From an uncultured Saprospiraceae bacterium (GTDB lineage: Bacteria > Bacteroidota > Bacteroidia > Chitinophagales > Saprospiraceae): 28,881 bases of DNA. The stretch spans positions 1 through 28,881 of the forward strand of contig CAZHZT010000072.1 in assembly GCA_964537285.1 (NCBI GenBank), written 5' to 3'. The number at the start of each line of letters is the position of its first letter. The first letter of the stretch is position 1. Made by a program: the position numbers and the translations under genes. The notes under the pieces were generated by a model. That model was not told where the DNA came from and ran no database searches. It saw only the letters and a list, made by a program, of their open reading frames with translations. Positions 7,281-28,881 of the stretch are shown in pieces.

Positions 7281-10200
7281 ATGACGCCCGCACAACCTTA
7301 CCAGCCTAAGCACAAAGTACGTCTTGTTACAGCTGCTTCCCTATTCGACGGCCATGATGCCGCTATTAACATCATGCGCCGAATCATGCAACGATCTGGT
7401 GCCGAAATAATACATCTTGGCCACAACCGATCCGTCAGAGAAATTGTCGATACGGCGATTCAGGAGGATGTTCAAGGCATTGCCATCACTTCCTATCAAG
7501 GTGGTCATGTGGAATACCTGAAATATATGTATGACCTGCTAAGAGAAAAAGGAGCCGGCCATATAAAAATATTTGGCGGCGGCGGTGGGACCATATTACC
7601 CTCTGAAATCGAAGAACTGCACACCTACGGCATCGATAGAATATACTCCCCTGACGATGGCCGTGAAATGGGGCTTCAAGGAATGATCAATGATGTCCTT
7701 CAAAATTGCGACTTCCCGACCGGTGTCAACCTGAATGGGGAACTAAAAGCATTTACAAGCAAAAACCCTAAAGCTATCGCGCGGATGATCTCGGCCATCG
7801 AGAATTTTCCAGATGAAAACCAGGAATGGCTCGTAAACATGCAAACAGAAATAAGAAAAAATCAGAAAACCATTCCGGTCCTGGGCATTACCGGAACAGG
7901 TGGAGCGGGAAAATCCAGCTTAGTCGATGAATTGGTTCGCCGTTTCCTGATCGATTTTGAAGATAAAACCATTGCCGTCGTTTCCGTTGATCCTTCCAAA
8001 AGAAAAACCGGAGGTGCTCTGCTGGGAGACCGGATCCGCATGAACGCCATCAGCAATGACCGGGTCTATATGCGTTCCCTGGCTACTCGCCAGTCTAATC
8101 TTGCGCTTTCTAAACATGTTCAAGGCGCAGTGGATATTTTAAAAGCCGCTCAGTTCGACTTGATCATCCTGGAAACCTCCGGTATCGGACAATCTGACAC
8201 GGAAATTGTCGACCATTCTGATGTTTCACTATATGTAATGACCCCGGAATACGGGGCAGCTACCCAGCTCGAAAAAATTGATATGCTGGATTTCGCTAAC
8301 ATTATTGCGATCAACAAATTCGATAAACGCGGAGCCTTGGATGCACTCCGAGACGTTAAGAAACAATATAAGCGCAATCACGGCCTCTGGGACACACCCA
8401 ATGAAGATATACCTGTTTTTGGCACTATCGCTTCTCAGTTCAACGACCCGGGGATGAATACCCTCTACCGGGTTATCATGGATAAATTAGTGGAAAAAAC
8501 CCAGGCTGACCTGCCTTCTAATTATTTGGTCAGCAAGGAAATGAGTGAAAAAATCTATATAATCCCTCCCAATCGAACACGCTACCTTTCTGAAATTTCT
8601 GAGAACAATCGCAACTATGATAAATTCGTAGAAAAACAAGAGGAGATTGCACGTAAGCTCTTCAGCTTGAAAAACGCTATCGATGCACTTAATGAGCAGG
8701 AAATCGACCATAAAGAAACGGTCATTCAAAGCCTTGAAAAACGATACAATGACCTGGAACTGGATATCAATGGTGATGCCAAGCGTATCCTGGATGGCTG
8801 GGAAGAGAAAAAAGCTGCTTATGCCGGGGATGAATTTATATACAAAGTCAGAAACAAAGAAATCAGAGTACCTACTTTCACTACCTCATTGTCGCATTCG
8901 CGTATTCCCAGAGTAATCCTTCCTAAATTCAAAGATTGGGGAGAGATCATTCGCTGGGCTATGCAGGAAAATGTTCCTGGCGAGTTTCCTTACACAGCTG
9001 GTGTTTTCCCCTTCAAGCGCAAAGGAGAAGATCCAACCCGTATGTTCGCAGGAGAAGGCGGGCCTGAAAGAACGAATCGCCGTTTTCATTACCTCTCCTA
9101 TGATATGCCGGCAAATCGCCTTTCTACAGCCTTCGATTCGGTAACACTTTATGGCGAAGACCCCGATCATCGTCCCGATATATATGGTAAAATTGGTAAT
9201 TCAGGGGTGAGCGTTTGCTGCCTGGATGATGCTAAAAAGCTATACTCCGGTTTTGATCTTTGCGACCCGAAAACTTCAGTCTCCATGACCATAAATGGTC
9301 CGGCAGCTACCATTTGCGCTTTCTTCATGAATGCAGCTATTGATCAACAATGCGAGCGATACATTATTGAAAATGGCTTACAAGATAAAGTTGAGGCAAA
9401 GCTCAAGGAATTATACGATGATAAAAACCTGCCAAGGCCACAATACAGAGGGGATATTCCGCAAGGCAACAACAAATTAGGGCTTTTACTTTTGGGAATC
9501 TCCGGAGATCAGGTTTTAGATGAGCCAGTTTACAAAGAACTCAAAGCTAAAGCCCTTTCGGCCGTTAGAGGTACCGTACAGGCTGATATATTGAAGGAGG
9601 ATCAAGCTCAAAATACTTGTATTTTCTCTACAGAGTTTTCATTGAAATTAATGGGAGATGTACAGGAATACTTTATCCAAAACAAGGTTCGGAACTTCTA
9701 TTCCGTATCCATTTCCGGTTACCATATAGCAGAGGCCGGAGCTAATCCGATTAGCCAACTTGCCTTTACCTTAGCAAACGGATTCACCTTTGTCGAGTAT
9801 TACCTAAGCCGCGGAATGAATATTGACGACTTCGCCCCTAATTTATCTTTCTTCTTCTCCAATGGCGTGGATCCGGAATATGCTGTGATTGGCCGCGTTG
9901 CCAGAAGGATATGGGCAAAAGCCTTAAAACATAAATACGGTGCTAACGAACGCTCTCAAAAACTTAAATACCATATTCAGACTTCCGGTCGCTCCCTTCA
10001 TGCTCAGGAAATCAGCTTCAACGATATACGAACAACCCTACAAGCATTATATGCTATTTATGACAACTGCAACTCTTTGCATACCAACGCTTATGATGAG
10101 GCCATCACTACACCCACAGAAGAAAGTGTGCGCCGCGCAGTAGCGATTCAGATGATCATTAACCATGAACTGGGATTAGCCAAAAACGAAAATCCATTAC

Positions 10201-10667
10201 AGGGTTCTTTTATAATTGAGGAGTTGACGGACCTGGTGGAAGAAGCTGTCTTAAGTGAATTTGATCGCATCACTGAACGGGGTGGTGTGCTTGGTGCTAT
10301 GGAAACCATGTACCAGCGCAGCAAGATCCAGGAAGAAAGCCTGTATTATGAAACGCTTAAACACACGGGAGAATATCCCATTATTGGTGTAAATACGTTT
10401 TTAAGTAAAGAAGGCTCACCCACGGTTATTCCGCAGGAAGTAATCCGCTCCACTTCGGAAGAAAAAGAAGCTCAAATCAGTACCCGCGATAATTTGCACA
10501 ATGCATCGGCAGAAAAGGGAGCGCAGGCTCTTCGTCAATTGCAGGAGGCATCTATCAATAACCGCAATATCTTTGAAGAATTGATGGAGGCTACAAAATA
10601 CTGCTCTTTGGGGCAGATCACCAATGCCTTGTATGAAGTAGGCGGGCAATATAGGAGGAATATGTAA
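7281..10667 (+). CDS. icmF: Fused isobutyryl-CoA mutase (IcmF): a B12-binding domain, a MeaB-like G-protein chaperone and an acyl-CoA mutase catalytic domain in one 1128-aa polypeptide.
   Basis: N-terminal cobalamin-binding 'DGHDAAINI...GGGG' (DxHxxG-type). Central P-loop GTPase '[17 protein letters not shown]', MeaB/ArgK-like. A C-terminal ~550-aa mutase TIM-barrel region ('YHIAEAG', 'IGVNTF'). The length and domain order match IcmF. Confidence 0.85.
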
Positions 10668-10702: not shown

Positions 10703-10811
10703 GTTCTTTGACAAATTGTGTGGAACTTTGAAATGATAACCCTTGAATGCCCTTGTGGTTGAAAGGGTTATCATTTTGAAGTTCCATTTTCCACAATTTA
10801 TGTCAAAGAAC
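10703..10811. repeat. Copy 1 of a ~110-bp imperfect palindromic element (gttctttgacaaattgtgtggaactttgaaatgataaccctt ... aagggttatcattttgaagttcc...caaagaac)
   Basis: It is self-complementary, with arms of about 45 nt. It is about 95% identical to the reverse complement of 24409..24518. Confidence 0.75.
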
Positions 10812-10812
10812 T

Positions 10813-10862
10813 AAAAACGAAAGGCCTGTGCTCGCGGATGCGAGCACAGGCCTTTCGTTTTT
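10813..10862. terminator. Strong bidirectional rho-independent terminator (aaaaacgaaaggcctgtgctcgc-ggat-gcgagcacaggcctttcgttttt) after icmF
   Basis: 18-bp GC-rich stem flanked by an A-run and a T-run. Confidence 0.85.
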
Positions 10863-11100: not shown

Positions 11101-11775
11101 ATGCTCGAATTACTTAATGCAGCAGTGGCCCCTGAGAGTATTGTGTACACCATTTTGCTTGGGTTAGCCATCCTTTATTGGATTTTCGTTATCATCGGAG
11201 CTCTGGATTTTAGCACTTTTGACTTTGACCTGGATGCAGACCTTGATATGGATATCGATGTGGATGCTGAAATCGATGTGGATGTAGATGCTGACGGAGA
11301 TGTAGTGACTGGTGGAAGCTGGATGGCAGGATTCTTACACTTTTTCAATTTTGGGAAAATGCCCTTTATGGTCATTTTTACTATTTTGATAACCTCTTGC
11401 TGGGCCATTTCCATTATTGCCAATCATTATTTTGGTGGCGGATCAATACTGTTCGCGCTGGCCTTGTTTTTTCCAAACTTATTTGTGAGCCTACTATTAA
11501 CTAAAATTATATCAACACCTTTATTACCATTATTTAAGCACTTTGATAGTGCCGAAGAACCAATTGAATATGTCGGCTTGACCTGCGAATTGACTCTCCC
11601 TGCCTCGAATACAGAGGCGGGGCAAGCCGAGGTTGTTGTTGATGGAAAGTATCTTCTGATCAGTGTTTTAGCTCAGGAAGAAACCAACCATAATTTTTTT
11701 AAAGGCGATAAAGCCTTAATCTGTGGAAAACAAAATGAAAAACCTATTTATCTAATTAAACAGTTGGACAACTAA
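11101..11775 (+). CDS. YqiJ/NfeD-like inner-membrane protein (DUF1449-like) with an acidic DxD repeat and a C-terminal OB-fold (224 aa)
   Basis: Two transmembrane segments and an acidic tract 'DFDLDADLDMDIDVDAEIDVDVDADGD'. The C-terminal 'GQAEVVVDGKYLLISVLAQEE...FFKGDKALICGKQN' resembles the NfeD/YqiJ OB-fold ('FTKGDKVLII' in E. coli YqiJ, as recalled). It sits directly upstream of a flotillin gene, as in yqiJK. Confidence 0.75.
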   Translation: MLELLNAAVAPESIVYTILLGLAILYWIFVIIGALDFSTFDFDLDADLDMDIDVDAEIDVDVDADGDVVTGGSWMAGFLHFFNFGKMPFMVIFTILITSCWAISIIANHYFGGGSILFALALFFPNLFVSLLLTKIISTPLLPLFKHFDSAEEPIEYVGLTCELTLPASNTEAGQAEVVVDGKYLLISVLAQEETNHNFFKGDKALICGKQNEKPIYLIKQLDN

Positions 11776-11854
11776 AAAATGATTTAGATCGTCTGCTAGC
11801 CTTCAACATCTTTTGGTTGTTTTAATTCTAACAATCTAATAACAACTTAAACCT

Positions 11855-14026
11855 ATGGCAACTTATGTATTTATTATCATCGGCGGGGTCATCGTCCTGC
11901 TGAGTGTAGGGATCCTTGCGGCTATCGTTTCCTGGTATAAGAAGACCCCTCAGGGCCAGGCACTGGTTCGAACCGGTAGCGGCGGAACTAAAGTCGCTTT
12001 CGATCGAGGAATCTTTGTCATCCCCGTTCTTCATATGGTCGAAACAATGGAGCTTTCTGTAAAAACCGTCGAAATTGCCCGTATGAAAGAAGATGGGCTG
12101 ATTTGTAAGGACAATATGCGGGCAGACATCAAAGTCGTCTTCTTTGTTCGCGTAAATCAAAACGTCGATGACATTCAGAAAGTGGCTCAAACCATTGGAT
12201 GTATCAGGGCTTCTGACCCCACGACCCTGAACAACCTGTTTGAAGCCAAATTCTCAGAAGCCCTGAAAACCGTTGGTAAACGCTTCGAATTTGTAGAACT
12301 CTACGATAATCGAGAAAAGTTCAAACAAGCTATCATCAACATTATAGGCTCCGATCTGAATGGCTATGTGCTGGATGATTGCGCTATCGACTATTTGGAA
12401 CAGACTCCGATGGAGTTCTTAAAACAAGATAATATCCTTGACTCCGAAGGTATTAAAAAGATTGCTGAACTTACCGCTGTTCAAAAAATCAAGGCCAACC
12501 AAATTCGTCGCGAAGAAGAAAAAACCATTAAAGAACAGAACGTCGAAGCTAAAGAAGCTATCCTTGAATATGATCGACAATTGACGGAAAAAGAAGAACG
12601 TCAAAAAAGGGAAATCGCTAATATCCGCGCTCGCGAAGCGGCTGAAATTGCTAAGATAAATGAAGAAGAAAGGCTGCGTTCTGAGATGGTACGCATCCAA
12701 ACAGAAGAGGAGCTGGCTATAGCCGAAGAAAATAAAGCACGCCAGGTCATTGTTGCTGCCAAAAGTAAGGAACGTACAGAGGCCATCGAAAATGAACGTG
12801 TACAAAAGGATCGCTTATTGGAACAAACCGAACGTGAACGCATCGTTACACTAGCCGAAATCGAAAAGCAGCGGGCCATTGAAGAAGAGAAAAAGAACAT
12901 CCAGGATGTCATCAAAGAGCGAATCATCGTTGAGAAAAAAGTGGTTGAAGAAGAAGAAAAAATTAAAGACACCCGCGAATTGGCAACGGCTAATCGTTCC
13001 AAAGAAGTAGCGTTGATTAAGGCCGATGAAACCGGAGAAGCTACTATAATAAAGCGCCGCAAGGAGGCAGAAGCAGAAAAACTAGCCGCTGAGATCCAGG
13101 CAAAAACCATGTTGATCGAAGCAGAAGCTCAGAAAAATGCAGCCGAAAAAGAAGCGGAAGCTCGTAAAATTAACGCAGAAGCAAAAGCCGCTGAGGAAGC
13201 AACCATTGGCCTGTCTGAAGCTCAAGTCACTGAAGCTAAAGCCAGAGCCAAAGAGGAAGAAGGCAATGTTGAGGCAAAAATCATTGAACAAAAAGCAGTG
13301 GCAGAAGCAAATGGTATCTCAGCGAAAGCAGAAGCTCTCCGCAAACAAGGAAATATGGAAGCCGAAGTATTGTTCGAAAAAGGTCAGTCTGAAGCTAAAG
13401 TCATCGAATTACAATCCCTGGCAAAAGCCAAAGGTACTGCGGAGCAAGGCTCAGCAGAAGCTTCTTCTTTGGAAAGCAAGCTATTAGCTGAAGCTAAAGG
13501 CGTAGAACAGAAAGCCATGGCCATGCAAAAACTGGACGGCGTCGGCAAAGAGCACGAAGAGTTTAAGTTACGCCTGGAAAAAGAAAAAGAAATTGCACTG
13601 GCAAATATCAATATCCAGGCTAAAATCGCTGAAGCACAGGCTCAAGTTCTGGCTGAAGCATTTAAGAAAGCTAATATTGACTTGGTTGGTGGCGAAGCTT
13701 CTTTTGTTAACAACATCCTTAATGCCATTAATCGGGGTAAAACCATCGATGGATTAGTAAATAATAGCGAAGTGCTTTCAGAGTTAAAAAATGGTTTGTT
13801 ATCTAATAATGCTCAAGGCTTGGGTAGCCTGGTTACGCGGCTTCGAAACCTGATTCAGGAAATGGGCATTTCTACAGAAGATATTAAGAACCTGACATTG
13901 TCTTCGCTGCTGCTTAAGTTGCAATCTCAGGCCACCGATGGCAAGCGCTCAATTGTCGAAGATTTGATGAATACAGTGGCTGGTTTGGGCATTGGTGATC
14001 AGGAGGTGAAAGCGTTGCTTTCGTAA
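11855..14026 (+). CDS. Flotillin/SPFH-domain protein, YqiK-like, with an extended Ala/Glu/Lys-rich coiled-coil tail (723 aa)
   Basis: N-terminal TM helix. 'ALVRTGSGGTKVAFDRGIFVIPVLHMVETMELSVKTVEIARMKEDGLICKDNMRADIKVVFFVRVN' is the SPFH/flotillin core. It is followed by about 350 aa of EA-rich heptad repeats. Confidence 0.9.
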   Translation: MATYVFIIIGGVIVLLSVGILAAIVSWYKKTPQGQALVRTGSGGTKVAFDRGIFVIPVLHMVETMELSVKTVEIARMKEDGLICKDNMRADIKVVFFVRVNQNVDDIQKVAQTIGCIRASDPTTLNNLFEAKFSEALKTVGKRFEFVELYDNREKFKQAIINIIGSDLNGYVLDDCAIDYLEQTPMEFLKQDNILDSEGIKKIAELTAVQKIKANQIRREEEKTIKEQNVEAKEAILEYDRQLTEKEERQKREIANIRAREAAEIAKINEEERLRSEMVRIQTEEELAIAEENKARQVIVAAKSKERTEAIENERVQKDRLLEQTERERIVTLAEIEKQRAIEEEKKNIQDVIKERIIVEKKVVEEEEKIKDTRELATANRSKEVALIKADETGEATIIKRRKEAEAEKLAAEIQAKTMLIEAEAQKNAAEKEAEARKINAEAKAAEEATIGLSEAQVTEAKARAKEEEGNVEAKIIEQKAVAEANGISAKAEALRKQGNMEAEVLFEKGQSEAKVIELQSLAKAKGTAEQGSAEASSLESKLLAEAKGVEQKAMAMQKLDGVGKEHEEFKLRLEKEKEIALANINIQAKIAEAQAQVLAEAFKKANIDLVGGEASFVNNILNAINRGKTIDGLVNNSEVLSELKNGLLSNNAQGLGSLVTRLRNLIQEMGISTEDIKNLTLSSLLLKLQSQATDGKRSIVEDLMNTVAGLGIGDQEVKALLS

Positions 14027-14040
14027 TTTTCCATTGCTAG

Positions 14041-14108
14041 CGTTTGGTGAAGGCTGAAGCCTTCGTCGTTGCGGATACTGTGACGAAGGCTTTAGCCTTC
14101 GCCGAACG
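14041..14108. repeat. BIME-like pair of REP-type palindromic units in inverted orientation (cgtttggtGAAGGCTgaAGCCTTCgtc ... gacGAAGGCTttAGCCTTCgccgaacg). They lie in the flotillin-to-ATPase intergenic spacer.
   Basis: The unit family matches the palindrome carried by the 74-bp tandem repeats at 28627..28881. Confidence 0.7.
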
Positions 14109-14156
14109 TAATATAAAACGTCAAACTGCATCAACCACATTTTAAAGTTGCTTATA

Positions 14157-17100
14157 ATGACAAATAACCCTTCCAATGAACTAGAGAGAGGCAGTTATGA
14201 AATCATACGGAATCGACTCCATAAACAAAGTCAAGAACTTCAAAATCGCCTCGATAAACTCAATAACCTCAGAAAAAAAGTCTTTGGAAACGTTGAGTTC
14301 AAACTCGTTTCCAACGATCGCATCAATACCTCTAATTATTGTATTGCCAGAGATATTGCCGCTTTTGGCAATTACTGCCTCTTTGGATATAACGTGCAGA
14401 TTGGCTTGCGCTCAGAGACCACCCTGCGCGATGTCTTTAGCCTCTACCAATACAAAGATCAGCGTTTCCAGGAACAAGAGCTGACACTCCTAAACGATGA
14501 CAAGTTTAAAGCGGATTTTAAAAACCTTTATAGATATTATAGAAATGCCTTCTTTACAAAATTTGTAAAACAAGGACCTTTCCTTTATATGGTATTCCAG
14601 CTCTCTGACAAAGTCGGGGATTACAAATCATTTAAATGGCTACAAAAAGAAGAGCACTTGGAGTATGTCGATGGCCGAAGTGAACATGAGCTTAAACGTC
14701 CGGATCAATATGAATTCCAATGGACCCGGGCACATCGCGAAATGTATCGCAATGGAGAACATCCCCACATTTCCATCCTCGACAGGGTGTTTGTCGAAAC
14801 AGTAGGCGGAGATCTGACCATTAAAATTGAAGATAATACATCTGATGGACTGGGTATCTATCGCGAGGATGTGGAACATGCCGAGCAAACCCTTGATGAT
14901 GCGGAGTATTTCTTTGCCGACCTTGGCAACATGATCGCCCTGAAAATCAAGCCTTACCAGGAGGCATTTCGCTACTTTATTTTTAATGATAAAACACAAC
15001 AAGTCCAAAGAATTGATGCTCTGGGAGAATCTGGAATCTTATTACCGGATCGCCAGGGCTTGGTATTCCCGAATGGCTATTATTTGCAATCCGGAGATTA
15101 TAAGATCTTCAATCCCGATCTTAAAAAAAAGCATTTTGAGAAAAGAATCGTTTCCTCCAATGGCGAAGACTTTCTCTATGTCTTTTTTAATGATGAAAAA
15201 GGAACTTATGTTATTCTCCCCTACAACATTATTGAGCAAAAGGCAAACATTCCTATATACTGTAACGGGTTTACCTTATTTCCCAATGGAGAACTGGCCA
15301 TTTTCAGAAGTGAAAACGAACCTACTAAACATCATGTCATTCAGATTTGGCAAACCCCCTTTCTAAAAGGAGAACCTGCCCCTTCCCAGCATTCTGATGA
15401 ATTCATATTCAAAATTGGCAACAAGGAAGTGGTTAAGGCTATGGCTGAAATCAATGACGTACTTATCCTTTGCAGGAAAGAAGATTCATACGCCAATTTG
15501 TATGACGATATCCTTAAGGAGTCTACGGATATTCTGGATTCCTTCCACTGGTTGAATCAGGAAAGTACATTCAGAATTGATGAGCCAGTTACTGCCATCA
15601 AAGACATTGCCGCTACGGCTATTGAAGCCTTCGAGAAAAAAGTAGATGCAGAACGAGCAACAAAACAAGAAGTCGAAAAAGTTAACCAATCCTCTCAAAC
15701 GCTTTTTGATAAAATTAAGCGGGCTAACTTCGAATCTGTTGAAGAATACGTCAATACACTCACTCAACTGAGGCAGCTCAGGGGAGAAATCATCTCGCTT
15801 AAGGATCTACGCTATGTGGACGCTGAATTCGTTGACACCCTTGAAAAACAAACCAAAACATTTTTAGCTAAACTTTCTGAAGAGTGTGTCGGCTTTTTGC
15901 TGCAAGACGATGCGCTTTCCCCCTACGAATCCAAAATAAAAGAACACGATGTCCGGATAAAGGAAATCACGACGGTAAAAATTGCCAATGATCTCGAAGA
16001 GGACATTAATAGCACAGGGGCGGCCTTGGAACTACTTATCGATGTAGTAAGCAACCTTAAGATCGAAGATACCACCCAAACTACCCGCATTATTGATAAC
16101 ATTTCCGCACTTTATGTACAATTAAACCAATTAAAGGCTTCTGTTAAAAAAGAAGCCAAAGCCTTGGCAACCAAAGAAGCTTCCGCAGCTTTTGGTGCTC
16201 AATTAAAGTTAATAGATCAAGCTTTAGTCAATTATTTAGACCTGGCTGTCAGCCCTGAAAAATGCGACACCTACCTCACCAAATTGATGGTCCAGATCGA
16301 AGAACTGGAAGGAAAATTTATTGAACTGGATGACTTCATTGAAGAAATTGGTGAGAAAAGAACCCATATATTTTCCGCTTTTGATCAAAAAAAGGCTAGG
16401 CTCCTTGAGGAACGCAACAACCGCACAGCTGCCATTGAGCGTGCCATTGACCGAATGTCGGAAAGCATCCAGAACCGGGCGAATGCTTTATCCGATAAAA
16501 ACGAGATCAACGCCTTCTTCTCTTCTGACCTGATGGTGGACAAGGTTCGGGACCTGATCAGCCAACTCAGAGAGCTTCAGGATAGCAATAAAGCAGATGC
16601 TGCTCAAACCCAATTGAAGCGTTTAAAAGAAGAAGCTCTGCGGCAATTAAGAGATAAAACAGAACTCTATCTGGAAGGTGGAAGCCTCATTCGCTTTGGC
16701 AAACATACTTTCAGCGTCAATATCCAACCCCTCGAACTTACGATGGTAAATCGCGAAGATGCGCTTTTACTTCATCTTACCGGGACGAGTTTTTTCATGC
16801 CTCTGGAAGAACCTGAATTAATAGACACCCAATCTGTTTGGAAGCAAGCTTTGCCTTCAGAAAACGAAACGGTTTACCGAGGAGAGTTTCTGGCTTATTC
16901 CATTTTTAAAAATAAAAATGGCCTTGGAAATAATACAAACTGGGAGGCTTTTGTAAAAGAGGAGGCACAAAGCCGTTATCAGGAAGGATATGTGAAAGGC
17001 GTGCATGATCAGGATGCCGAAAACATCCTAAAAGCCTTGCTGGAATTAGATCGTTCAGTTGGGCTGCTAAGGTTTGCCCCCGATGTCCGTGCATTGGCAC

Positions 17101-19037
17101 GCTATTTCTGGGAGTTACAAATAGACGTTGAAAATCGTGCCTTGTTCCAAGAGCAATTGAAGAGTGCAGGCATGATCCGCCGGTTTTTCCCAACCACCCA
17201 TGAATTTGATTACCTGATCGAAGATATTGAAGGAGTGCTGCGAGCTGAAAGTCGAGATCAACTTATTCGGGCATTCAATAACACAAATGATAAGCTGAGC
17301 AAAGTTGCGCAATATTTATTTTACCAACTTTCAGATGGAGAATCCTTCGTTATCTCTCCGGAAGCTGCTGGTTTATACGATAATTTTAAAAAGTATTTGA
17401 ACATCCAGAAAGGCGATTCCATCTATCAGAATTCCATTGCTGAGCTGGAAAAACATCCGCTGGAACAATTTCAATTGATCAAAAAATGGATGATGGCTTT
17501 CTTGCATCAGCAAAGTTTAACGGATGCCATTCCTTTCCTGAATGAGACCAGCATTTTGCTGCTTTTAGAACCGGAAAACTATTCTAAAAAAGCTGTACTA
17601 AACGCCAAAACTACTTTAAAGCTTGAAAACTTACACGGCGATCACCCTGTTATTGTAAACAACGAATACAAACTTGACTTTCTGGACTTTACAGAAAAAA
17701 TGGAGCATTTTCACAATGAAAGGCTTCCTCTATTCAATCGATTTCAAGAAGCCAAAAGAGGTGTATTGCATAAATATCGGCAAAAACTACAGCTAGAGTC
17801 TTTCAAGCCCAGGGTGCTAAGCTCCTTCGTCCGTAATAAACTAATTGACAAAGTCTATCTCCCTATCATTGGAGATAATCTGGCGAAGCAAATTGGTGTT
17901 GCAGGAGAAAACACCCGAACAGATCGCATGGGTTTGCTCTTACTGATCTCCCCTCCAGGTTATGGCAAGACAAGCCTGATGGAATACGTTGCGAATCAGC
18001 TTGGTTTGATTTTCATGAAAATCAATGGCCCCGCAATTGGTCACAGAGTAACTTCTCTTGATCCTAAGGAAGCACCTAACCGGGCTGCTGCCCAAGAACT
18101 GAACAAGCTCAACCTGGCTTTGGAAATGGGCGATAACATCATGCTTTACCTCGATGATATCCAGCATTGTCACGCCGAGTTTTTGCAAAAATTCATCTCT
18201 TTATGCGATGCTCAACGTAAGATCGAAGGTGTATTCAAGGGGGAAAGCAAACAATACGACCTAAGAGGAAAGCGGGTTTGTGTAGTCATGGCCGGAAACC
18301 CATACACAGAGAGCGGTGAAAAGTTTAAAGTTCCCGACATGCTTGCAAACAGAGCGGATATTTATAATTTGGGAGATATTATCGGAGATACCGAGCACCT
18401 TTTCAAACTAAGTTACATTGAAAATGCGCTAACATCGAATAGTACTCTTCAGCAGTTGGTAAATAAGAGCAACGAGGACATGCACCAACTCATTGAAGTG
18501 GCTGCTACCGGGAATCAGGAGAGCCTGCAACTGGAAGCTGATTATGGAACTGGAGAAGTCGAGGATTATCTATCGGTGCTAAAAAAGCTTATCCTTATCC
18601 GGGACGCTCTGTTTAAGGTCAATAAAAACTATATTCAATCGGCAGCAATGGCTGACGATTATCGCTCTGAACCCGCATTTAAGCTTCAAGGATCATACAG
18701 AGACATGAACAAACTGGCCGAAAAAGTAGTACCCCTTATGAATGAAAAAGAGGTATCTGCTTTGTTATTAACGCATTATGAAAGCGAAGCTCAAACATTA
18801 ACTACAGGAGCAGAAGCTAATTTTTTAAAACTTAAAGAAATCCTAGACCTTATCCAGGCAGACGAGAAGAAACGCTGGGAAGAAATTAAGCATACTTTCC
18901 AGAAAAATAAACTGTTTAGAGGTGGCAATGGCGACAATCCAGTGGCCCAGGCAGTGGCGCAGTTGGGTATGCTTACCGATGAGCTGGAAGGGATAAAAAA
19001 GGCTTTGAATAGCAATAAAGAGGAGGCTGGCTCATAA
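14157..19037 (+). CDS. Giant uncharacterised protein (~1626 aa from the first ATG; the ORF-track start at 14148 is a TTG) with a C-terminal MoxR/AAA_5-like AAA+ ATPase module
   Basis: Walker A 'LLLISPPGYGKTSLMEY' (about nt 17958). Walker B 'IMLYLDDIQHCHAE', parallel to MoxR 'LLDEINRA..E' but with DD. Sensor-1 'VVMAGNPYT', parallel to the AAA_5 'ATQNP/TMNP' motif. An Arg-finger/helix-2-insert region 'DMLANRADIYNLGDI'. The N-terminal ~1250 aa have no motif I can recognise and contain coiled-coil stretches in the middle. Confidence 0.85.
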   Translation: MTNNPSNELERGSYEIIRNRLHKQSQELQNRLDKLNNLRKKVFGNVEFKLVSNDRINTSNYCIARDIAAFGNYCLFGYNVQIGLRSETTLRDVFSLYQYKDQRFQEQELTLLNDDKFKADFKNLYRYYRNAFFTKFVKQGPFLYMVFQLSDKVGDYKSFKWLQKEEHLEYVDGRSEHELKRPDQYEFQWTRAHREMYRNGEHPHISILDRVFVETVGGDLTIKIEDNTSDGLGIYREDVEHAEQTLDDAEYFFADLGNMIALKIKPYQEAFRYFIFNDKTQQVQRIDALGESGILLPDRQGLVFPNGYYLQSGDYKIFNPDLKKKHFEKRIVSSNGEDFLYVFFNDEKGTYVILPYNIIEQKANIPIYCNGFTLFPNGELAIFRSENEPTKHHVIQIWQTPFLKGEPAPSQHSDEFIFKIGNKEVVKAMAEINDVLILCRKEDSYANLYDDILKESTDILDSFHWLNQESTFRIDEPVTAIKDIAATAIEAFEKKVDAERATKQEVEKVNQSSQTLFDKIKRANFESVEEYVNTLTQLRQLRGEIISLKDLRYVDAEFVDTLEKQTKTFLAKLSEECVGFLLQDDALSPYESKIKEHDVRIKEITTVKIANDLEEDINSTGAALELLIDVVSNLKIEDTTQTTRIIDNISALYVQLNQLKASVKKEAKALATKEASAAFGAQLKLIDQALVNYLDLAVSPEKCDTYLTKLMVQIEELEGKFIELDDFIEEIGEKRTHIFSAFDQKKARLLEERNNRTAAIERAIDRMSESIQNRANALSDKNEINAFFSSDLMVDKVRDLISQLRELQDSNKADAAQTQLKRLKEEALRQLRDKTELYLEGGSLIRFGKHTFSVNIQPLELTMVNREDALLLHLTGTSFFMPLEEPELIDTQSVWKQALPSENETVYRGEFLAYSIFKNKNGLGNNTNWEAFVKEEAQSRYQEGYVKGVHDQDAENILKALLELDRSVGLLRFAPDVRALARYFWELQIDVENRALFQEQLKSAGMIRRFFPTTHEFDYLIEDIEGVLRAESRDQLIRAFNNTNDKLSKVAQYLFYQLSDGESFVISPEAAGLYDNFKKYLNIQKGDSIYQNSIAELEKHPLEQFQLIKKWMMAFLHQQSLTDAIPFLNETSILLLLEPENYSKKAVLNAKTTLKLENLHGDHPVIVNNEYKLDFLDFTEKMEHFHNERLPLFNRFQEAKRGVLHKYRQKLQLESFKPRVLSSFVRNKLIDKVYLPIIGDNLAKQIGVAGENTRTDRMGLLLLISPPGYGKTSLMEYVANQLGLIFMKINGPAIGHRVTSLDPKEAPNRAAAQELNKLNLALEMGDNIMLYLDDIQHCHAEFLQKFISLCDAQRKIEGVFKGESKQYDLRGKRVCVVMAGNPYTESGEKFKVPDMLANRADIYNLGDIIGDTEHLFKLSYIENALTSNSTLQQLVNKSNEDMHQLIEVAATGNQESLQLEADYGTGEVEDYLSVLKKLILIRDALFKVNKNYIQSAAMADDYRSEPAFKLQGSYRDMNKLAEKVVPLMNEKEVSALLLTHYESEAQTLTTGAEANFLKLKEILDLIQADEKKRWEEIKHTFQKNKLFRGGNGDNPVAQAVAQLGMLTDELEGIKKALNSNKEEAGS

Positions 19038-19074: not shown

Positions 19075-19563
19075 CTATGAATTTTGCGAATACTGAGACT
19101 TCTTGTAATCTGGCTCCACAGGCACCCGGCCTTTCCATGAATCCGGAACCAACTCTTTGCGGATGTCCAAATCTCTAATCGCCCTTAAAATATCCACCCG
19201 ACTGACTTGCCCTACTAAACGCCCCTGGTCCATTACAGGCAATCGTTTAAGCCCTTTATGAAGGAAGAGATAGGCCGCATCAAATATCGTTTTATCTGCA
19301 CCTATCGTTTGTATTTGAGTAGACATATAGGCACTGACGACACCTGCCTGGCCAGGCTCTTTGTTATACATATCATCGACGAGAAGTTTCAGGCAATCAG
19401 CTTCTGAGAGCATGCCCACTAATTCATTCGCGTCATTTACAACCGGAGATCCGGAAATCCCTTTTTTAAGGAATGTATTGATGGCGTGCAAGATAGGCGT
19501 ATCGGGTTTGAAGGTGATCAAGGAAGTCGCCATGTAATTTACAAGAAGAGGGAATTTTTTCAT
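19075..19563 (-). CDS. CBS-domain pair protein (162 aa). An alternative start at MATSLITF, coordinate 19533, is possible.
   Basis: Two CBS motifs: '...FKPDTPILHAINTFLKKGISGSPVV' and 'QTIGADKTIFDAAYLFLHKGLKRLPVMDQGRLVGQVSRVDILRA'. Confidence 0.8.
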   Translation of the reverse strand: MKKFPLLVNYMATSLITFKPDTPILHAINTFLKKGISGSPVVNDANELVGMLSEADCLKLLVDDMYNKEPGQAGVVSAYMSTQIQTIGADKTIFDAAYLFLHKGLKRLPVMDQGRLVGQVSRVDILRAIRDLDIRKELVPDSWKGRVPVEPDYKKSQYSQNS

Positions 19564-19678: not shown

Positions 19679-21196
19679 TTGTTGTTGAGTAAAAATGCCT
19701 TCATCAAGATCAATAGCTTTGATGCGAAGTACCTTCAATCAAAAGAACCTGCTTTTGTAATCTCAAACAGGCGATTCACCGAAGCAGATGAACTCATTTT
19801 GATTAAACTGCTCCTCTCTTATACTCCAAACTTTAAAATCCTTACCACTCATCCCCATTATTTGAACCATCCCTTGCTAAAGCCTTATTTTTATGAGCCT
19901 TTTGCCTATCAATTTCAAAAAATAAACCTTCCTTCCACCTCTACCGCCATCCGGCAGTCCATAGAAGCGGTTATTTCTGAAGGTAAGAGTTGCGTAATCG
20001 TAATGGATTACGCCATCAAGCGGCTGGGAACACTGAATCGGCTCCAGCAAAACTGGCGGATTATGAGGTGGGTAAAAAAAGCTAAGCTTCCTATTGTGCC
20101 GATCAATTTTTTTTCTGAACATCTCAACCCTAACAACGCCAGCATTTCTGTCAGAGTTGGCAAGCCCATTTCGCCGGAAGTGCAAAAGATGTTTAAATCC
20201 TACAGGAGGTTTGGAAAGTTTGTCCAGCTTAAAGTCATGGCCCTGGGCTCTTCCCTGGAAGTACGAAATTTCTACCACCAAATCGATTCCGCTAAAAATG
20301 TTAAAGAAGCAGTTGCTCCTGCTATTTCAAGTGAACTCATTGAGGCAGAAATTGAGCAATTAACCTACGAGAACTTAGTAGCCAGCCGATCCGACTTTGA
20401 TGTCTTCGTTGCAGGGGCATTTAAGATCCCTAACATCTTGAAGGAAATTGGCCGCTTGCGGGAACTTACCTTTAGAGAAGTAAATGAAGGAACAGGCTAC
20501 AGTAGAGATTTAGATGAATACGACCTTTACTACCAGCAACTTATAATTTGGGATAGAAAAGCTAAGAAAATTGTAGGAGGGTATCGACTAGGCTTAGGGG
20601 ACGAAATTTTCAATCGATTTGGGGTAGAGGGCTTTTACATCAACAGCCTTTTTAAAATTGAGAAAGGTTTTTATCCAATCATGAAAGACGCGGTTGAACT
20701 TGGGAGGTCTTATGTAGTGAAAGAGTACCAAAAACATCGCTTACCTTTGTTTTTGTTATGGAAAGGAATACTCCATTTTTTATTAAAAAACCCACGTTAT
20801 CGTTATCTTTATGGCCCTTTGAGTATAAGTAAACACTATTCTGATTTGTCGAAAAGTCTGATTATTGAGTTCGTCAAGAAGTATTATTTTGATAAAAAAC
20901 TGGCGAAACACCTTGAGCCCCGAACACCTTTCGTGTTTAAAGTCCCCAAAGCAGATATTGACCTGATACTGGACAGTTTAGAAAACAATATAGGAGAATT
21001 GGATAATTTCATTGAAGATATCGAACCCGATCATTTCAGGCTTCCGGTACTATTGAAGCAATACATCAAACAAAACGCTAGATTTATCAGCTTTAATGTG
21101 GACCCTAATTTTTCCGATGTTCTGGATGGTTTTATGATCCTCGATTTAAAGAATGTGCCTTATTCCACCATTGAAGCATTAAAGAAAGAACAATAA
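19679..21196 (+). CDS. Two-domain acyltransferase. The N-terminal domain is PlsC/LPLAT-like with degenerate catalytic motifs. The C-terminal domain is an OlsB-like GNAT N-acyltransferase ('hemolysin-like'). It is possibly OlsF-like or in the glycine/ornithine-lipid family. It has a non-ATG start (TTG).
   Basis: C-terminal 'LRELTFREVNEGTGYSRDLDEYDLYYQQLIIWD' is the signature of OlsB/PF13444. N-terminal 'FVISNRRFTEAD' occupies the position of PlsC motif I (NHxxxxD) and 'LPIVPI' matches motif IV. There is no in-frame ATG before residue ~109. Confidence 0.65.
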   Translation: MLLSKNAFIKINSFDAKYLQSKEPAFVISNRRFTEADELILIKLLLSYTPNFKILTTHPHYLNHPLLKPYFYEPFAYQFQKINLPSTSTAIRQSIEAVISEGKSCVIVMDYAIKRLGTLNRLQQNWRIMRWVKKAKLPIVPINFFSEHLNPNNASISVRVGKPISPEVQKMFKSYRRFGKFVQLKVMALGSSLEVRNFYHQIDSAKNVKEAVAPAISSELIEAEIEQLTYENLVASRSDFDVFVAGAFKIPNILKEIGRLRELTFREVNEGTGYSRDLDEYDLYYQQLIIWDRKAKKIVGGYRLGLGDEIFNRFGVEGFYINSLFKIEKGFYPIMKDAVELGRSYVVKEYQKHRLPLFLLWKGILHFLLKNPRYRYLYGPLSISKHYSDLSKSLIIEFVKKYYFDKKLAKHLEPRTPFVFKVPKADIDLILDSLENNIGELDNFIEDIEPDHFRLPVLLKQYIKQNARFISFNVDPNFSDVLDGFMILDLKNVPYSTIEALKKEQ

Positions 21197-24540: not shown

Positions 24541-27537
24541 ATGAAAAACATCAGAATAAATTATTCCCAACGGGGATGTGATTGCGTTAAAACCAGGTTT
24601 CCGAATGCTTTAATTAGAAGCTCAAAGCTATTGATAATAATTGCATTTATCCTTTCGACAGCCATTATACATACACTTAACGCACAAGAAGACCAAACCC
24701 TGTCTCCATATTTTTTGGTTAAGGGCCAATCCAGCGACGGAGCATTTGCCCTAAAATCTACCCAAGCAGATGTGAACATTGCCGGCGTGATCGCTGATGT
24801 AACCGTTACGCAGGAATACCAGAATAATACCGAAAATCCACTAGAAGCTATTTATGTATTTCCTGCTTCTACCCGTGCAGCCGTTTACGACATGAAAATG
24901 ACGATAGGAGAGCGGGTTGTACAGGCAGAAATTATGGAAAAAGGCAAGGCCCGACAGGAATATGAACAAGCAAAGGCTAAAGGAAAAAGAGCATCACTGC
25001 TGGAACAAGAGCGCCCGAACGTTTTCCAAATGAATGTAGCCAATATTATGCCGGGCGATTTAATTAAAGTAGAACTAAAGTATACAGAACTGCTCGTGCC
25101 CGAAGATAGTGAATACACCTTTGTATATCCAACTGTTGTAGGCCCGAGATATGTTAGCGCCGGAGAATCCGGATCAAACCAGTTTAATGCCAACCCATAC
25201 ACCAAACAAGGAGAAATGCCCGCTTATGAGTTTGATTTAAATATCAACCTCGCCGCTGGTATGCCGATACAAGACATCCTGTGTAACACCCATGAAGTAA
25301 ATGTAAACTACCCATCCAATGATAATGCTATTGTCAAACTTGATGCTTCTGAAAAGAAAGGAGGAAACAGAGATTTTATCCTTAGTTATTGCTTAGCGGG
25401 AAAGGAAATTGAATCTGGCTTGCTGCTTTTTGAAGGAAAAAAGGAAAACTTTTTCCTGATGTGCATGCAGCCTCCTAAGCGAGTGCGCCCGGATCAGATC
25501 CCTCCCAGGGAATATGTCTTCATTATGGATGTATCAGGCTCTATGAATGGCTTCCCTTTGGGTGTAAGTAAAGAATTGATGAGTAATTTATTACAAAAGC
25601 TTCGCCCTTCTGACCTGTTCAACATCTTATTTTTTGCCGGAGGTTCAAGCTGGCTGTCGCCCAGTTCTCTAAAGGCTACGGATGATAATATCACTAAAGC
25701 CATCGAATTCATGAATAACCAACGTGGTGGCGGAGGAACCGAATTATTGTCGGCCATGAAAAATGCCTATGCTTTGCCTAGGCCTTATGATAATTTGTCC
25801 AGATCTATGGTCATAATTACAGATGGTTATGTAACGGTGGAGCAGGAAGCGTTTGAAATGGTTCGCCAGAATTTGAACCAGGCGAATGTCTTTGCTTTTG
25901 GGATTGGCTCCAGTGTGAATCGTCACTTAATAGAAGGGCTGGCTTTTACGGGGCAGGGAACACCTTTTGTAGTGACCAATCAGGAGGAGGCTCCGGAAAT
26001 ATCCAAAAAACTCATTGAATATATCCAACAGCCAGTACTCACGCAAATCAGTACTCAATTTGAAGGCTTCGAAGCCTATGATGTCCTTCCTGAATCCGTT
26101 CCGGATGTATTATCTGAACGACCGGTACTTTTATTCGGGAAGTACAAAGGAAAACCTGCAGGAACAATTACCGTAAAAGGGCATTCTGGAGAGGAGGTCT
26201 ACACTAAAAAGTTTCGTGTTTTAAATGCATCCCCTTCAAAGAATAACAATGCCCTAAAATACCTTTGGGCCAGAGAGAAAATACGGATGCTGGATGACTT
26301 TTCCGGTTATGGCCAAGATTTGGATAAAATTGCCCAAGTAACAAACCTAGGGTTAAAATACAACCTCATGACGAATTACACTTCTTTTGTTGCCATTGAT
26401 AAAAAGAAAGTAAGAGATAAGTCCGAAGAATTGGTTACCGCCAAACAAGCACTACCTCTTCCACAAGGCGTTCCTAATTCTGCAATAGGTTTCGACCTTG
26501 GATTAGAAGAAGTCATGGCCTTTAATGGTTCTGAAGTATTGGATGGCATGATGGTTTCCAGTACTCAGAAAACTAATCACTTCATTGAGATTAGCGAAGC
26601 ACAAAAGAAAAACACCATTACCTTCATTTTGGGAACAGATAGCAAAGCCAATAATCCATATTTTGAAAAAGCAGGGCAATACTTCCGCTTTAGCACTGAA
26701 AACAAAACAGAATGGGTCGTGGATAGCTGCAAAACACTAGAAGAAATCAAAGCTTTTTTAAGGGAAAACCATCCGGGTGATGCCCCTTGGGGAACAATTA
26801 ATTTGGTCGTACATGGTAATGAATGGACGGGTATCAGTTTACCTGTAAATGAAGGAGCAAGCAAGCGTACTAGCAAAAACAAGCTAGCCCAGTACAACCT
26901 TTCTCCTGCAACGCCGCCACTTTCTGACCAACAAATTGATAAAAATACGTTGGTAAAAGTTTATGCTTGTGGTTTAGGGAAAGATACTCTTCTGTTAAAT
27001 CAACTAAGTATTGCCTTCGGTGGCCATGATCATGACCGACCAACAGTTGAATCTACCCCCTATTTTGTACAATTTTTGGACAAAAATCACCTGACCGGGC
27101 AGGTTGATTTGCATCAGGCAGAATATTTCTATGCCTTCTTCAAAAATGGTTATCGCCCCGGTGATATTCGTTTGAGCCGCCAATTGAGCAGCCGCTTCCC
27201 GGATGCCGGAATTGATTGGCGGGGAGCACTCTCAAGAACATCACCGCGATTCTCGGGAGATACTTACCAATACACCATTGACGTGCCTGTCGTTTGGATT
27301 GTAACCTACCCTAATAAGGATTTACGCCCAACCCTCGGCACAAAAGAAGCACAACAAACGTGGCTGAACCAACAAACCGCATTGAAGCAGTCCCTTGAAA
27401 AAATGGATATCCCTGAAGAAATGTTCAACTGGCATTTTAGAGAAATCATGTATGAAACGGAAGCAGGAGAAGAAGTGCCCGCGATTAAAGTTATTGGCTT
27501 GAGCTCAGTAGTTCTGGTACTTCGTACTATTGAATAA
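24541..27537 (+). CDS. Exported VIT (vault/inter-alpha-trypsin) + von Willebrand factor A domain protein with a ~400-aa uncharacterised C-terminal region (998 aa)
   Basis: Signal/TM 'LLIIIAFILSTAIIHTLNAQ'. VIT-like N-terminus. vWA MIDAS 'YVFIMDVSGSMNG' (DxSxS) with downstream 'ITDG'. Confidence 0.85.
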   Translation: MKNIRINYSQRGCDCVKTRFPNALIRSSKLLIIIAFILSTAIIHTLNAQEDQTLSPYFLVKGQSSDGAFALKSTQADVNIAGVIADVTVTQEYQNNTENPLEAIYVFPASTRAAVYDMKMTIGERVVQAEIMEKGKARQEYEQAKAKGKRASLLEQERPNVFQMNVANIMPGDLIKVELKYTELLVPEDSEYTFVYPTVVGPRYVSAGESGSNQFNANPYTKQGEMPAYEFDLNINLAAGMPIQDILCNTHEVNVNYPSNDNAIVKLDASEKKGGNRDFILSYCLAGKEIESGLLLFEGKKENFFLMCMQPPKRVRPDQIPPREYVFIMDVSGSMNGFPLGVSKELMSNLLQKLRPSDLFNILFFAGGSSWLSPSSLKATDDNITKAIEFMNNQRGGGGTELLSAMKNAYALPRPYDNLSRSMVIITDGYVTVEQEAFEMVRQNLNQANVFAFGIGSSVNRHLIEGLAFTGQGTPFVVTNQEEAPEISKKLIEYIQQPVLTQISTQFEGFEAYDVLPESVPDVLSERPVLLFGKYKGKPAGTITVKGHSGEEVYTKKFRVLNASPSKNNNALKYLWAREKIRMLDDFSGYGQDLDKIAQVTNLGLKYNLMTNYTSFVAIDKKKVRDKSEELVTAKQALPLPQGVPNSAIGFDLGLEEVMAFNGSEVLDGMMVSSTQKTNHFIEISEAQKKNTITFILGTDSKANNPYFEKAGQYFRFSTENKTEWVVDSCKTLEEIKAFLRENHPGDAPWGTINLVVHGNEWTGISLPVNEGASKRTSKNKLAQYNLSPATPPLSDQQIDKNTLVKVYACGLGKDTLLLNQLSIAFGGHDHDRPTVESTPYFVQFLDKNHLTGQVDLHQAEYFYAFFKNGYRPGDIRLSRQLSSRFPDAGIDWRGALSRTSPRFSGDTYQYTIDVPVVWIVTYPNKDLRPTLGTKEAQQTWLNQQTALKQSLEKMDIPEEMFNWHFREIMYETEAGEEVPAIKVIGLSSVVLVLRTIE

Positions 27538-27691: not shown

Positions 27692-27880
27692 ATGAAACAC
27701 TTAGTCCTACTTACACTAATTATAACACCACTTTTCCTCTCTGCCCAATTCTACTACCACGATCAATTAGTTGTGAACGCGGACATACTAAACCTCCGCT
27801 CAGAACCCAAAATCGCCAAAAATGTAATTGGGAAACTCAAAGAAGGCACCTATCCCTCTCTTCACAGCCTTTCGATATAG
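27692..27880 (+). pseudogene. Short ORF (62 aa) with a signal peptide and the first half of a bacterial SH3 (SH3b/SH3_3) domain. It is likely a gene remnant. It overlaps the 3' end of the convergent response-regulator gene by 19 nt.
   Basis: 'MKHLVLLTLIITPLFLSAQ', then 'VVNADILNLRSEPKIAKNVIGKLKEGT', which resembles the N-terminal half of SH3_3. The ORF stops before the domain is complete. Confidence 0.35.
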
Positions 27881-28608
27881 CGCAATACCTGAGTTTTTCG
27901 TCGATGAGCAACGGGGATATTCTCGCCATCCTTCATGGTGAGGTATCCGCCGTCTGCTTTGTCAAAAGCAGTGACTTGCGTCATATTTACAAGATAGGAA
28001 TGATGTACCCGCAGAAAACCTTGGTCATGTAGTAGTTGGTCGAACTCCTTTAAGGTACGGGAGACCATAAGCTTTCCAACGTTTTCCACCCGGAAGATGG
28101 TGTAATTGCTATCCGATTGGCAGTAATAAATATCCTGAATCGGCACCACATTAATCTTCTCCGCGGTGTGCAAAGCAATCTTTCTGGGAGCCTGATCAGA
28201 CTTCAACGCATTGAGCAATAATCCTCTACTTTCTGTGCCCGAAAACTGCAGCAAACGTTTGGCTTTTTCAACAGCCTCTTTAAGATCTTCAGGATTGATG
28301 GGCTTCAACAAATAATCAATGGCTGAAAACCTGAAAGCACGAATAGCATGTTCATCCGATACTGTAGTGAAAATTAGTTGAAAATGCATGTCCTCGGGCA
28401 ATATTTCCAGAAGATCAAAGCCCGTACCATCCCCTAGTTCCACATCCAGAAACACAAGATCCGGGTCAAGCTCTTTAATGCACTTAGCCCCCTTTACTAC
28501 ACTATCTGCATGCCCTACAATAGTTACATCAGGACAATAAGTACTTAAGTCCGCTTTCAAGACTTCCAGTGCCTGTGGCATATCTTCAATGATGACTGCT
28601 TTAACCAT
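27862..28608 (-). CDS. LytTR-family two-component response regulator (REC + LytTR DNA-binding domain; 248 aa from MVKAVIIED). The ORF-track start at 28701 would run into the tandem repeats.
   Basis: Receiver 'VIIEDMP...DLVFLDVELGDGTGFDLL' with the phospho-acceptor Asp. C-terminal LytTR region 'IYYCQSDSNYTIFRVENVGKLMVSRTLKEFDQLL...FLRVHHSYLVN'. Confidence 0.85.
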   Translation of the reverse strand: MVKAVIIEDMPQALEVLKADLSTYCPDVTIVGHADSVVKGAKCIKELDPDLVFLDVELGDGTGFDLLEILPEDMHFQLIFTTVSDEHAIRAFRFSAIDYLLKPINPEDLKEAVEKAKRLLQFSGTESRGLLLNALKSDQAPRKIALHTAEKINVVPIQDIYYCQSDSNYTIFRVENVGKLMVSRTLKEFDQLLHDQGFLRVHHSYLVNMTQVTAFDKADGGYLTMKDGENIPVAHRRKTQVLRYIERL

Positions 28609-28626: not shown

Positions 28627-28881
28627 CTGTTCGGCGAAGGCTACAGCCTTCGCCATTCTAAACGCAAAAATCTGTTTTGCGGACTTGTATAACACTTGCA
28701 TCGTTTGGCGAAGGCTACAGCCTTCGCCATTCTAAACGCAAAAATCTGTCTCGCGGACTTGTATAACACTTGCATCGTTTGGCGAAGGCTACAGCCTTCG
28801 CCATTCTAAACGCAAAAATCTGTCTCGCGGACTTGTATAACACTTGCATCGTTTGGCGAAGGCTACAGCCTTCGCCATTCT
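28627..28881. repeat. Tandem array of a 74-bp unit, at least 3.4 copies, truncated by the window end. Each unit carries the REP-like palindrome GGCGAAGGCTacaAGCCTTCGCC plus an A/T-rich segment with an ACTTG-n6-ACTTG direct repeat. The array begins about 20 bp upstream of the LytTR regulator start codon.
   Basis: The palindrome copies start at 28633, 28707, 28781 and 28855, giving a period of exactly 74. The units are near-identical, with 2-3 substitutions in copy 1. Confidence 0.85.

Follow-up and report, generated by a model that had tools for sequence, protein, structure and literature searches.

A YqiJ–flotillin–giant AAA+ gene cluster in an uncultured Saprospiraceae bacterium as a predicted PspA-less form of a published operon

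Does a giant AAA+ protein encoded behind a flotillin gene pair belong with that pair, and, if so, what might the three proteins do together? We asked this of a 28.9-kb contig (28,881 nucleotides, hereafter the window) from an uncultured Saprospiraceae bacterium, in which genes for a YqiJ/YuaF (NfeD-like) protein, a flotillin and a 1626-residue ATPase follow one another on the plus strand. An earlier note on this DNA had described them as a co-directional three-gene cluster with spacers of 79 and 130 nt and no interruption from the opposite strand, a description that held. The open reading frames (ORFs) and both spacers (11776–11854, 79 nt, and 14027–14156, 130 nt) were confirmed, and the minus-strand ORFs within the cluster are short and all embedded in the large plus-strand ORFs; among relatives, a comparable embedded minus-strand ORF is an antisense shadow of the flotillin gene. 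The three genes, with the evidence for their assignment, are as follows.

11101–11775, plus strand: YqiJ/YuaF (NfeD-like) partner, 224 aa (Pfam YqiJ_N, hhalign, transmembrane (TM) scan)
11855–14026, plus strand: YqiK-type flotillin, 723 aa (Band_7 on a fragment, hhalign, TM/composition scan)
14157–19037, plus strand: giant cytosolic AAA+ protein, 1626 aa (ORF, homologue N-terminus, Pfam, TM scan)

The linkage of these genes is widely kept. A one-genome-per-species scan matched at least 600 stretches, 586 of which were confirmed to encode a relative, and the best 80, drawn from Bacteroidota, Planctomycetota, Verrucomicrobiota, Desulfobacterota and Hydrogenedentota, were examined. Together with seven distant loci from Gammaproteobacteria, Actinomycetota and Deinococcota (Pseudomonas pQBR103, Proteus, Vibrio, Halomonas, Streptomyces, Nonomuraea and Deinococcus), 73 of these 80 scan loci provided 80 informative loci. 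Of the 80 informative loci, 74 have a flotillin gene no more than 10 kb upstream of the giant gene, in 73 cases on the same strand. In all seven distant loci the flotillin gene is directly upstream of the giant gene, whose product is 34–41% identical to ours. The giant ATPase routinely adjoins an SPFH/NfeD pair, as the earlier note had suggested checking, and its orthologues are not routinely found away from flotillin/NfeD genes. Gene order is retained in at least eight phyla, so chance does not explain the adjacency. Clustering placed a YqiJ-like gene in 59 of 81 loci. Percent identity to the window protein correlates between flotillin and giant (r = 0.85), a value that is compatible with co-inheritance but equally reflects shared phylogeny and carries little weight.

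The earlier note had also treated the coupling of a flotillin with a giant AAA+ protein as new, a point on which the literature corrects it. In a purely computational study, Ravi et al. (bioRxiv 2020; mSystems 2024, PMC11237479) described the same operon, comprising a 3TM YqiJ/YuaF protein, a band-7/flotillin and a β-propeller/coiled-coil/AAA+ protein, with or without an upstream CesT/Tir–PspA dyad, and proposed a chaperone-like role in assembling membrane-linked complexes. The gene order given there for Dokdonia donghaensis (Table S3 of PMC11237479, exemplar ANH61663.1) equals the order found in the present analysis. Because the association is already published, the window locus adds an example and is no discovery in itself.

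In approximately 30 of 80 relatives (Flavobacteriia, Cytophagia and others), the order is a divergent HTH_3+Peptidase_S24 regulator, CesT_Tir_1, PspA_IM30, the YqiJ-like protein, the flotillin and the giant, and in the neighborhoods of relatives the CesT/Tir–PspA dyad is the only set of conserved extra partners of the module. Compared with the operon of Ravi et al., the window shares the three proteins, their domain architectures, their order and their strand; the full form is seen in a Dokdonia sp. locus (L073) and about 30 others, whereas the window has neither the dyad nor the divergent HTH+S24 regulator and adds a genome-specific repetitive extragenic palindromic (REP) doublet in the second spacer. 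The missing dyad makes the window locus, as judged from its sequence, an abbreviated, PspA-lacking version of the operon tied by Ravi et al. to the PspA/IM30 envelope-stress system, and its membership of this abbreviated form stands. Longer arrangements also occur. On pQBR103, the order is YjfI, PspA, rhomboid, DUF2491, DUF350, DUF1190, glutathionylspermidine synthase, a hypothetical protein, the SPFH gene and the giant, and in four loci DUF4178, lipoprotein, DUF350 and spermine synthase genes lie downstream.

The proposal that the first two genes form a yqiJK-type pair was borne out by profile comparison with the two E. coli proteins. The flotillin profile aligned with E. coli YqiK at 100% hhalign probability (E 3.4e-40) over 402 columns, reaching into the helical region. 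The window flotillin comprises a TM segment (aa 7–25), an SPFH/Band_7 domain (aa ~30–190), a helical region of ~400 aa rich in Glu, Lys and Ala (aa 190–600) and a conserved C-terminal region (aa ~600–723); with a single N-terminal TM segment followed by lysines, the bulk of the protein should face the cytoplasm. Pfam Band_7 (PF01145) matched residues 1–220 alone (E 3.3e-15, 57 bits against a cut-off of 23.6). The full-length protein returned zero Pfam matches, probably because the long Glu/Lys/Ala-rich helix trips the HMMER filters, and NCBIfam likewise gave nothing useful, whether for the full-length protein or for fragments. Band_7 was matched in seven of 21 family members; beyond it, no Pfam family, including Flot (PF15975), was found in the 21 members (E ≤ 0.01) or the C-terminal fragment (E ≤ 1). 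Single-sequence and profile searches of the Protein Data Bank (PDB) retrieved QmcA only (E 1e-4), and it was the hhalign comparison with E. coli YqiK that proved decisive. NCBI names the homologues 'flotillin family protein'. In three loci, a gene for an extra short SPFH-only protein (~185 aa) separates the YqiJ-like gene from the flotillin gene (L029 6957–7508, L069 2451–3044 and L071 8248–8799).

For the upstream partner, the family profile aligned with E. coli YqiJ at 95% hhalign probability (E 3.5e-8) over 182 columns. The protein has three TM segments (aa 18–36, 85–103 and 116–134), an acidic DxDxD loop (aa ~37–70) and a small C-terminal β-rich domain. Pfam YqiJ_N scored 21.5 bits on the window protein, just below the cut-off of 23, and exceeded it in nine of 15 orthologues (best E 3.6e-8); Pfam NfeD had no match among the YqiJ-like proteins scanned. 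Against the PDB, the profile weakly matched the soluble domain of B. subtilis YuaF (2k14, E 0.17, aa 150–206). Residues ~44–68 of the DxDxD loop are encoded by an imperfect 24/30-nt tandem repeat (11231–11303), and the length of the loop is highly variable among orthologues. A cation- or polyamine-binding role for the loop is conceivable, given the polyamine genes in the extended operons.

The giant protein was said in the earlier note to be recognizable only in its ATPase part. This proved wrong, as DUF3686 and DUF7902 cover N-terminal parts of the protein. Its main regions are listed here.

14235–15548, plus strand: DUF3686 region (aa 27–464), an N-terminal helix followed by a β-propeller-like domain (Pfam E 5.5e-174)
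15909–16160, plus strand: DUF7902 (aa 585–668), inside an all-helical, coiled-coil-like region spanning aa ~416–840 (Pfam E 1.1e-23; helices in the AlphaFold 2 (AF2) model)
17838–18416, plus strand: AAA+ α/β core (aa ~1228–1420), with the motifs given below

The ORF opens at TTG 14148, and the ATG at 14157 agrees as a start with the N-terminus of homologues; the TM scan found no TM segment in the protein. The AF2 model of residues 431–1626 (pLDDT 81.9) opens with ~400 residues folded as long helices; a small β domain and a helical domain come next, ahead of the AAA+ core and its lid. The core carries Walker A (SPPGYGKT, 1265–1272), Walker B (YLDDIQH, 1331–1337, with DD instead of DE), sensor-1 Asn1381 and Arg1399, all invariant in 13 giants from eight phyla, and in the structure model a β-hairpin (aa ~1355–1368) precedes sensor 1. 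Sequence matches to the core are marginal. AAA_5 scored 22.3 bits against a cut-off of 22 (24.8 bits on a fragment) and was outscored by PF00004 AAA (28.6 bits on the full protein and 31.5 on the fragment), and the p97, NVL and RuvB matches from sequence searches did not extend beyond the Walker-A strand. By structure comparison, the fold is MoxR/dynein-like and closest to the MoxR-family proteins CbbQ and NorQ, in support of the MoxR-like ATPase that had been proposed. From this clade-like fold and the hairpin before sensor 1, the label 'AAA_5/MoxR-like' stands, by a modest margin.

Giants of this type are numerous. More than 5287 family members are present in the protein collection, nearly all of them full length, and the propeller domain falls into 709 clusters at 50% identity, with full-length members of ~1600–2000 aa. 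The best 120 matches are full-length orthologues with 51–59% identity, and those of distant phyla have 34–41%. NCBI calls the family 'DNA repair ATPase'. The giants of Planctomycetota and Desulfobacterota have 1750–1906 aa, 100–280 aa more than those of Bacteroidota (L024, L028, L030, L036, L037, L039, L050, L054, L068, L075 and L080).

What might such a module do? We think it probable, on the strength of domain content and gene neighborhoods, that it forms a membrane-stress or membrane-remodeling complex in which the ATPase acts on the flotillin cage, on PspA polymers or on held clients. The earlier note had suggested a role of this kind, and the frequent upstream CesT/Tir–PspA dyad fits it. 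In such a complex, the flotillin and its YqiJ partner would build an SPFH cage or microdomain at the cytoplasmic face of the inner membrane. The cytosolic giant would oligomerize via its MoxR/dynein-like AAA+ module, dock through the β-propeller and the long helical arm, and spend ATP on building, dismantling or reshaping the cage, or on remodeling ESCRT-III-like PspA polymers or held clients, during membrane damage or maintenance. Any PspA partner in the source genome would be encoded outside the 28.9-kb contig.

Several observations weigh against a membrane-remodeling complex. The window holds no PspA or CesT homologue and has a mutase gene upstream instead. In six of the 80 informative loci, no pair lies within 10 kb of the giant gene; these six are dispersed among close relatives that carry the pair, a distribution suggestive of secondary rearrangements. 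The flotillin–giant junction is loose among relatives, with a median gap of ~280 nt and inserted genes in at least 20 of them, so co-transcription is not assured. No VWA partner is conserved in the module among 80 loci, although MoxR-type ATPases usually work with one. Between Walker A and Walker B the AAA+ core lacks an aromatic pore loop, and the second of these motifs reads DD and not DE. A Vps4-like threading unfoldase mechanism is doubtful for the giant: the missing pore loop and the DD Walker B, taken with the MoxR/dynein-like fold, would favor a lever or chaperone-like action. Finally, literature searches found no experimental work on any member, no paper of any kind on DUF3686, and none that brings 'DNA repair ATPase' and flotillin together.

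Three other explanations of the same genes have to be weighed against the membrane-remodeling complex. The module could be a client-directed chaperone or quality-control system, whose cage sequesters membrane-protein clients and whose ATPase extracts, matures or releases them in the manner of HflK/C–FtsH or MoxR proteins. HflK/C encloses FtsH, the AAA+ fold of the giant is closest to the maturation chaperones CbbQ and NorQ, and a β-propeller is a typical protein-binding platform. A chaperone-like role is, moreover, what Ravi et al. proposed (PMC11237479). We nevertheless consider this alternative unlikely, since the proteins carry no protease domain, no VWA partner or conserved client gene lies nearby, and the sole conserved extra partners are PspA and CesT/Tir. 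That the giant is instead an ATPase for DNA repair, in line with its name in the databases, and stands beside the flotillin pair by accident seems to us barely credible. An adjacency to a membrane pair kept in at least eight phyla speaks against accident, no conserved repair genes lie nearby (the neighbors are membrane and PspA genes), and domain scans found no DNA-binding, nuclease or helicase domain. The name itself goes back to the Pfam description of DUF3686 as an 'ATPase involved in DNA repair' and to the NCBI family name; a weak RuvB_N match (22.3 bits, below the cut-off of 27) agrees with it but is limited to the Walker-A strand.

The earlier note had further raised a defense function. 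As an anti-phage or conflict system, the module would sense infection at the membrane, with the giant ATPase as effector or switch. Such a reading could appeal to the frequency of giant NTPases with repeat domains in defense systems, to copies on megaplasmids (pQBR103) and on Deinococcus and Streptomyces plasmids, and to the selfish genes often inserted beside the giant gene. It did not survive closer inspection, and we judge it very improbable. PADLOC-DB v2 returned IetA only, through a negligible match to 29 residues at Walker A (E 0.002, 15.6 bits), and 50,697 phage records contained no homologue; on these two results the defense reading was rejected. Pfam finds no nuclease, toxin or other effector domain, the neighbors are housekeeping or PspA/polyamine genes and not defense islands, and divergence tracks taxonomy, as the flotillin–giant identity correlation (r = 0.85) indicates.

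If the membrane-remodeling complex is taken as the better account, the locus touches a gap in what is known of bacterial membrane scaffolds. We know of no settled disassembly route for SPFH/flotillin cages. For PspA, a 2025 review of ESCRT-III-like systems in bacteria (PMC7619361) writes of a Vps4-like ATPase that it 'appears absent in bacteria' and leaves the control of PspA polymerization open; SPFH oligomers are linked there to PspA activation. A conserved giant ATPase is an obvious candidate for the job of remodeling PspA polymers or flotillin cages. A bolder proposal, which we put forward tentatively and hold to be possible but on the unlikely side, is that the giant is the missing ATP-driven remodeler of these scaffolds, an unrelated functional analogue of Vps4 that would be non-threading and MoxR/dynein-like, use the propeller and helical arm as a lever, and act on flotillin cages, PspA polymers or both. 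The module occurs in tractable organisms (Pseudomonas fluorescens SBW25 with plasmid pQBR103, Proteus mirabilis, Vibrio campbellii, Streptomyces and Flavobacteriia), which makes these ideas directly testable.

Two further features of the window lie at the edges of the module genes.

14041–14108, no strand assigned: REPIN-like doublet in the second spacer, made of two inverted copies of a 27-nt palindromic unit specific to this genome
10813–10862, plus strand: perfect hairpin with a 23-bp stem (100% complementary) and a 4-nt loop, followed by a T run (inverted-repeat/terminator scan)

The element in the second spacer had been taken for a REP pair, and we agree. Its arms (14041–14067 and 14082–14108) are 27 nt each and 89% complementary, and the doublet folds as one long hairpin (−54.7 kcal/mol, z −7.25) that no U tract follows. 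Six copies of the core palindrome, GAAGGCTNNAGCCTTC, are present in the window where 0.10 would be expected, and four of them belong to a tandem array of 74-nt units that runs to the end of the contig. That array (28629–28881, 3.4 copies, 98% matches) carries the REP-like palindrome of the spacer in each unit (GGCGAAGGCTACAGCCTTCGCC), lies upstream of a LytTR response-regulator gene (27862–28608, minus strand), and probably caused the assembly break. The element was found in none of 87 related loci, which marks it as a REP/REPIN-like insertion specific to this genome and not as a conserved regulatory component. The flotillin–giant junction of relatives often holds, by lineage, an IS200-like Y1 transposase, a GIY-YIG protein, a DUF559 endonuclease-like protein or various small genes (L002, L009, L016, L020, L043, L046, L061, L063, L073 and L077 among others). 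These varied insertions indicate that selfish elements have settled in this spacer repeatedly. IS200-like Y1 transposases belong to the family that includes REP-associated transposases.

Upstream of the module, the hairpin at 10813–10862 is likely the terminator of the preceding mutase gene, and it would set the 5′ boundary of the transcription unit of the module. Directly 5′ of it, a nested long inverted repeat occupies the interval between the mutase gene and the module (arms 10703–10732/10782–10811 and 10721–10744/10763–10786); this repeat (10703–10811) may be another mobile or structured element. Promoter scans of the window stayed at chance level, both for sigma-70 promoters (17 found, 17.2 expected) and for the Bacteroidota −7 motif TAnnTTTG (27 found, 28.8 expected). 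The latter motif occurs twice upstream of the first gene (10910 and 10951) and in neither internal spacer, a distribution that cannot settle co-transcription. The mutase gene itself (7281–10667, plus strand) encodes a 1128-aa fusion of B12-binding, MeaB GTPase and methylmalonyl-CoA-mutase parts, an architecture that we take to be IcmF-like.

On the other side, a convergent gene for a ~160-aa CBS-pair protein (19075–19563, minus strand) lies just 3′ of the giant gene. A CBS-pair gene is found near the giant in three of 88 loci from three phyla, namely the window, a Streptomyces plasmid (L082, 13506–13997, minus strand) and a Mariniblastus metagenome-assembled genome (L075, ~17734–18081, minus strand), which could be coincidence. 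Further downstream, a 505-aa GNAT-type N-acyltransferase (19679–21196, plus strand) is a relative of the aminolipid synthases OlsF and GlsB, with NCBIfam scores (238 and 136 bits) that fall short of the respective cut-offs; this membrane-lipid gene adjoins the module and is not kept in related loci. Nor is the gene for a 998-aa VIT+VWA protein (24541–27537, plus strand), which lies 5.5 kb 3′ of the giant ATPase gene with other genes between.

How, then, does the locus compare with systems already known? Its first two genes are homologous to E. coli yqiJ-yqiK and B. subtilis yuaF-floT, as the alignments to YqiK (E 3.4e-40) and YqiJ (E 3.5e-8) and the weak 2k14 match indicate. In E. coli, however, no giant ATPase follows, sibD/ibsD coming after yqiK, and E. 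coli YqiK has 553 aa compared with 723 aa for the window flotillin. Set beside the MoxR chaperones (CbbQ-CbbO, NorQ-NorD and RavA-ViaA), midasin and dynein, the giant is a single C-terminal AAA+ module on a 1626-aa propeller/helical-arm protein, with a DD Walker B and with no VWA/MIDAS partner conserved in the operon.

The coupling of SPFH and AAA+ proteins was regarded in the earlier note as uncharacterized, and here HflK/C–FtsH is a precedent: a solved SPFH cage around an AAA+ protease in the inner membrane, which brings together SPFH proteins and an AAA+ hexamer. FtsH is a membrane-anchored member of the classical AAA clade with a protease domain, and the cage formed by HflK/C lies in the periplasm. 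The window ATPase, in contrast, is soluble, has a MoxR/dynein-like fold and no protease domain, and the predicted orientation of the flotillin is toward the cytoplasm. Relative to ESCRT-III/Vps4 and PspA (IM30/Vipp1), Vps4 is a classical-clade AAA protein with an MIT domain and an aromatic pore loop, both of which the window ATPase lacks, and PspA was not found in the window. The likeness lies in a membrane-remodeling polymer that is genetically coupled to an AAA+ ATPase, with PspA encoded directly upstream in about 30 of 80 relatives.

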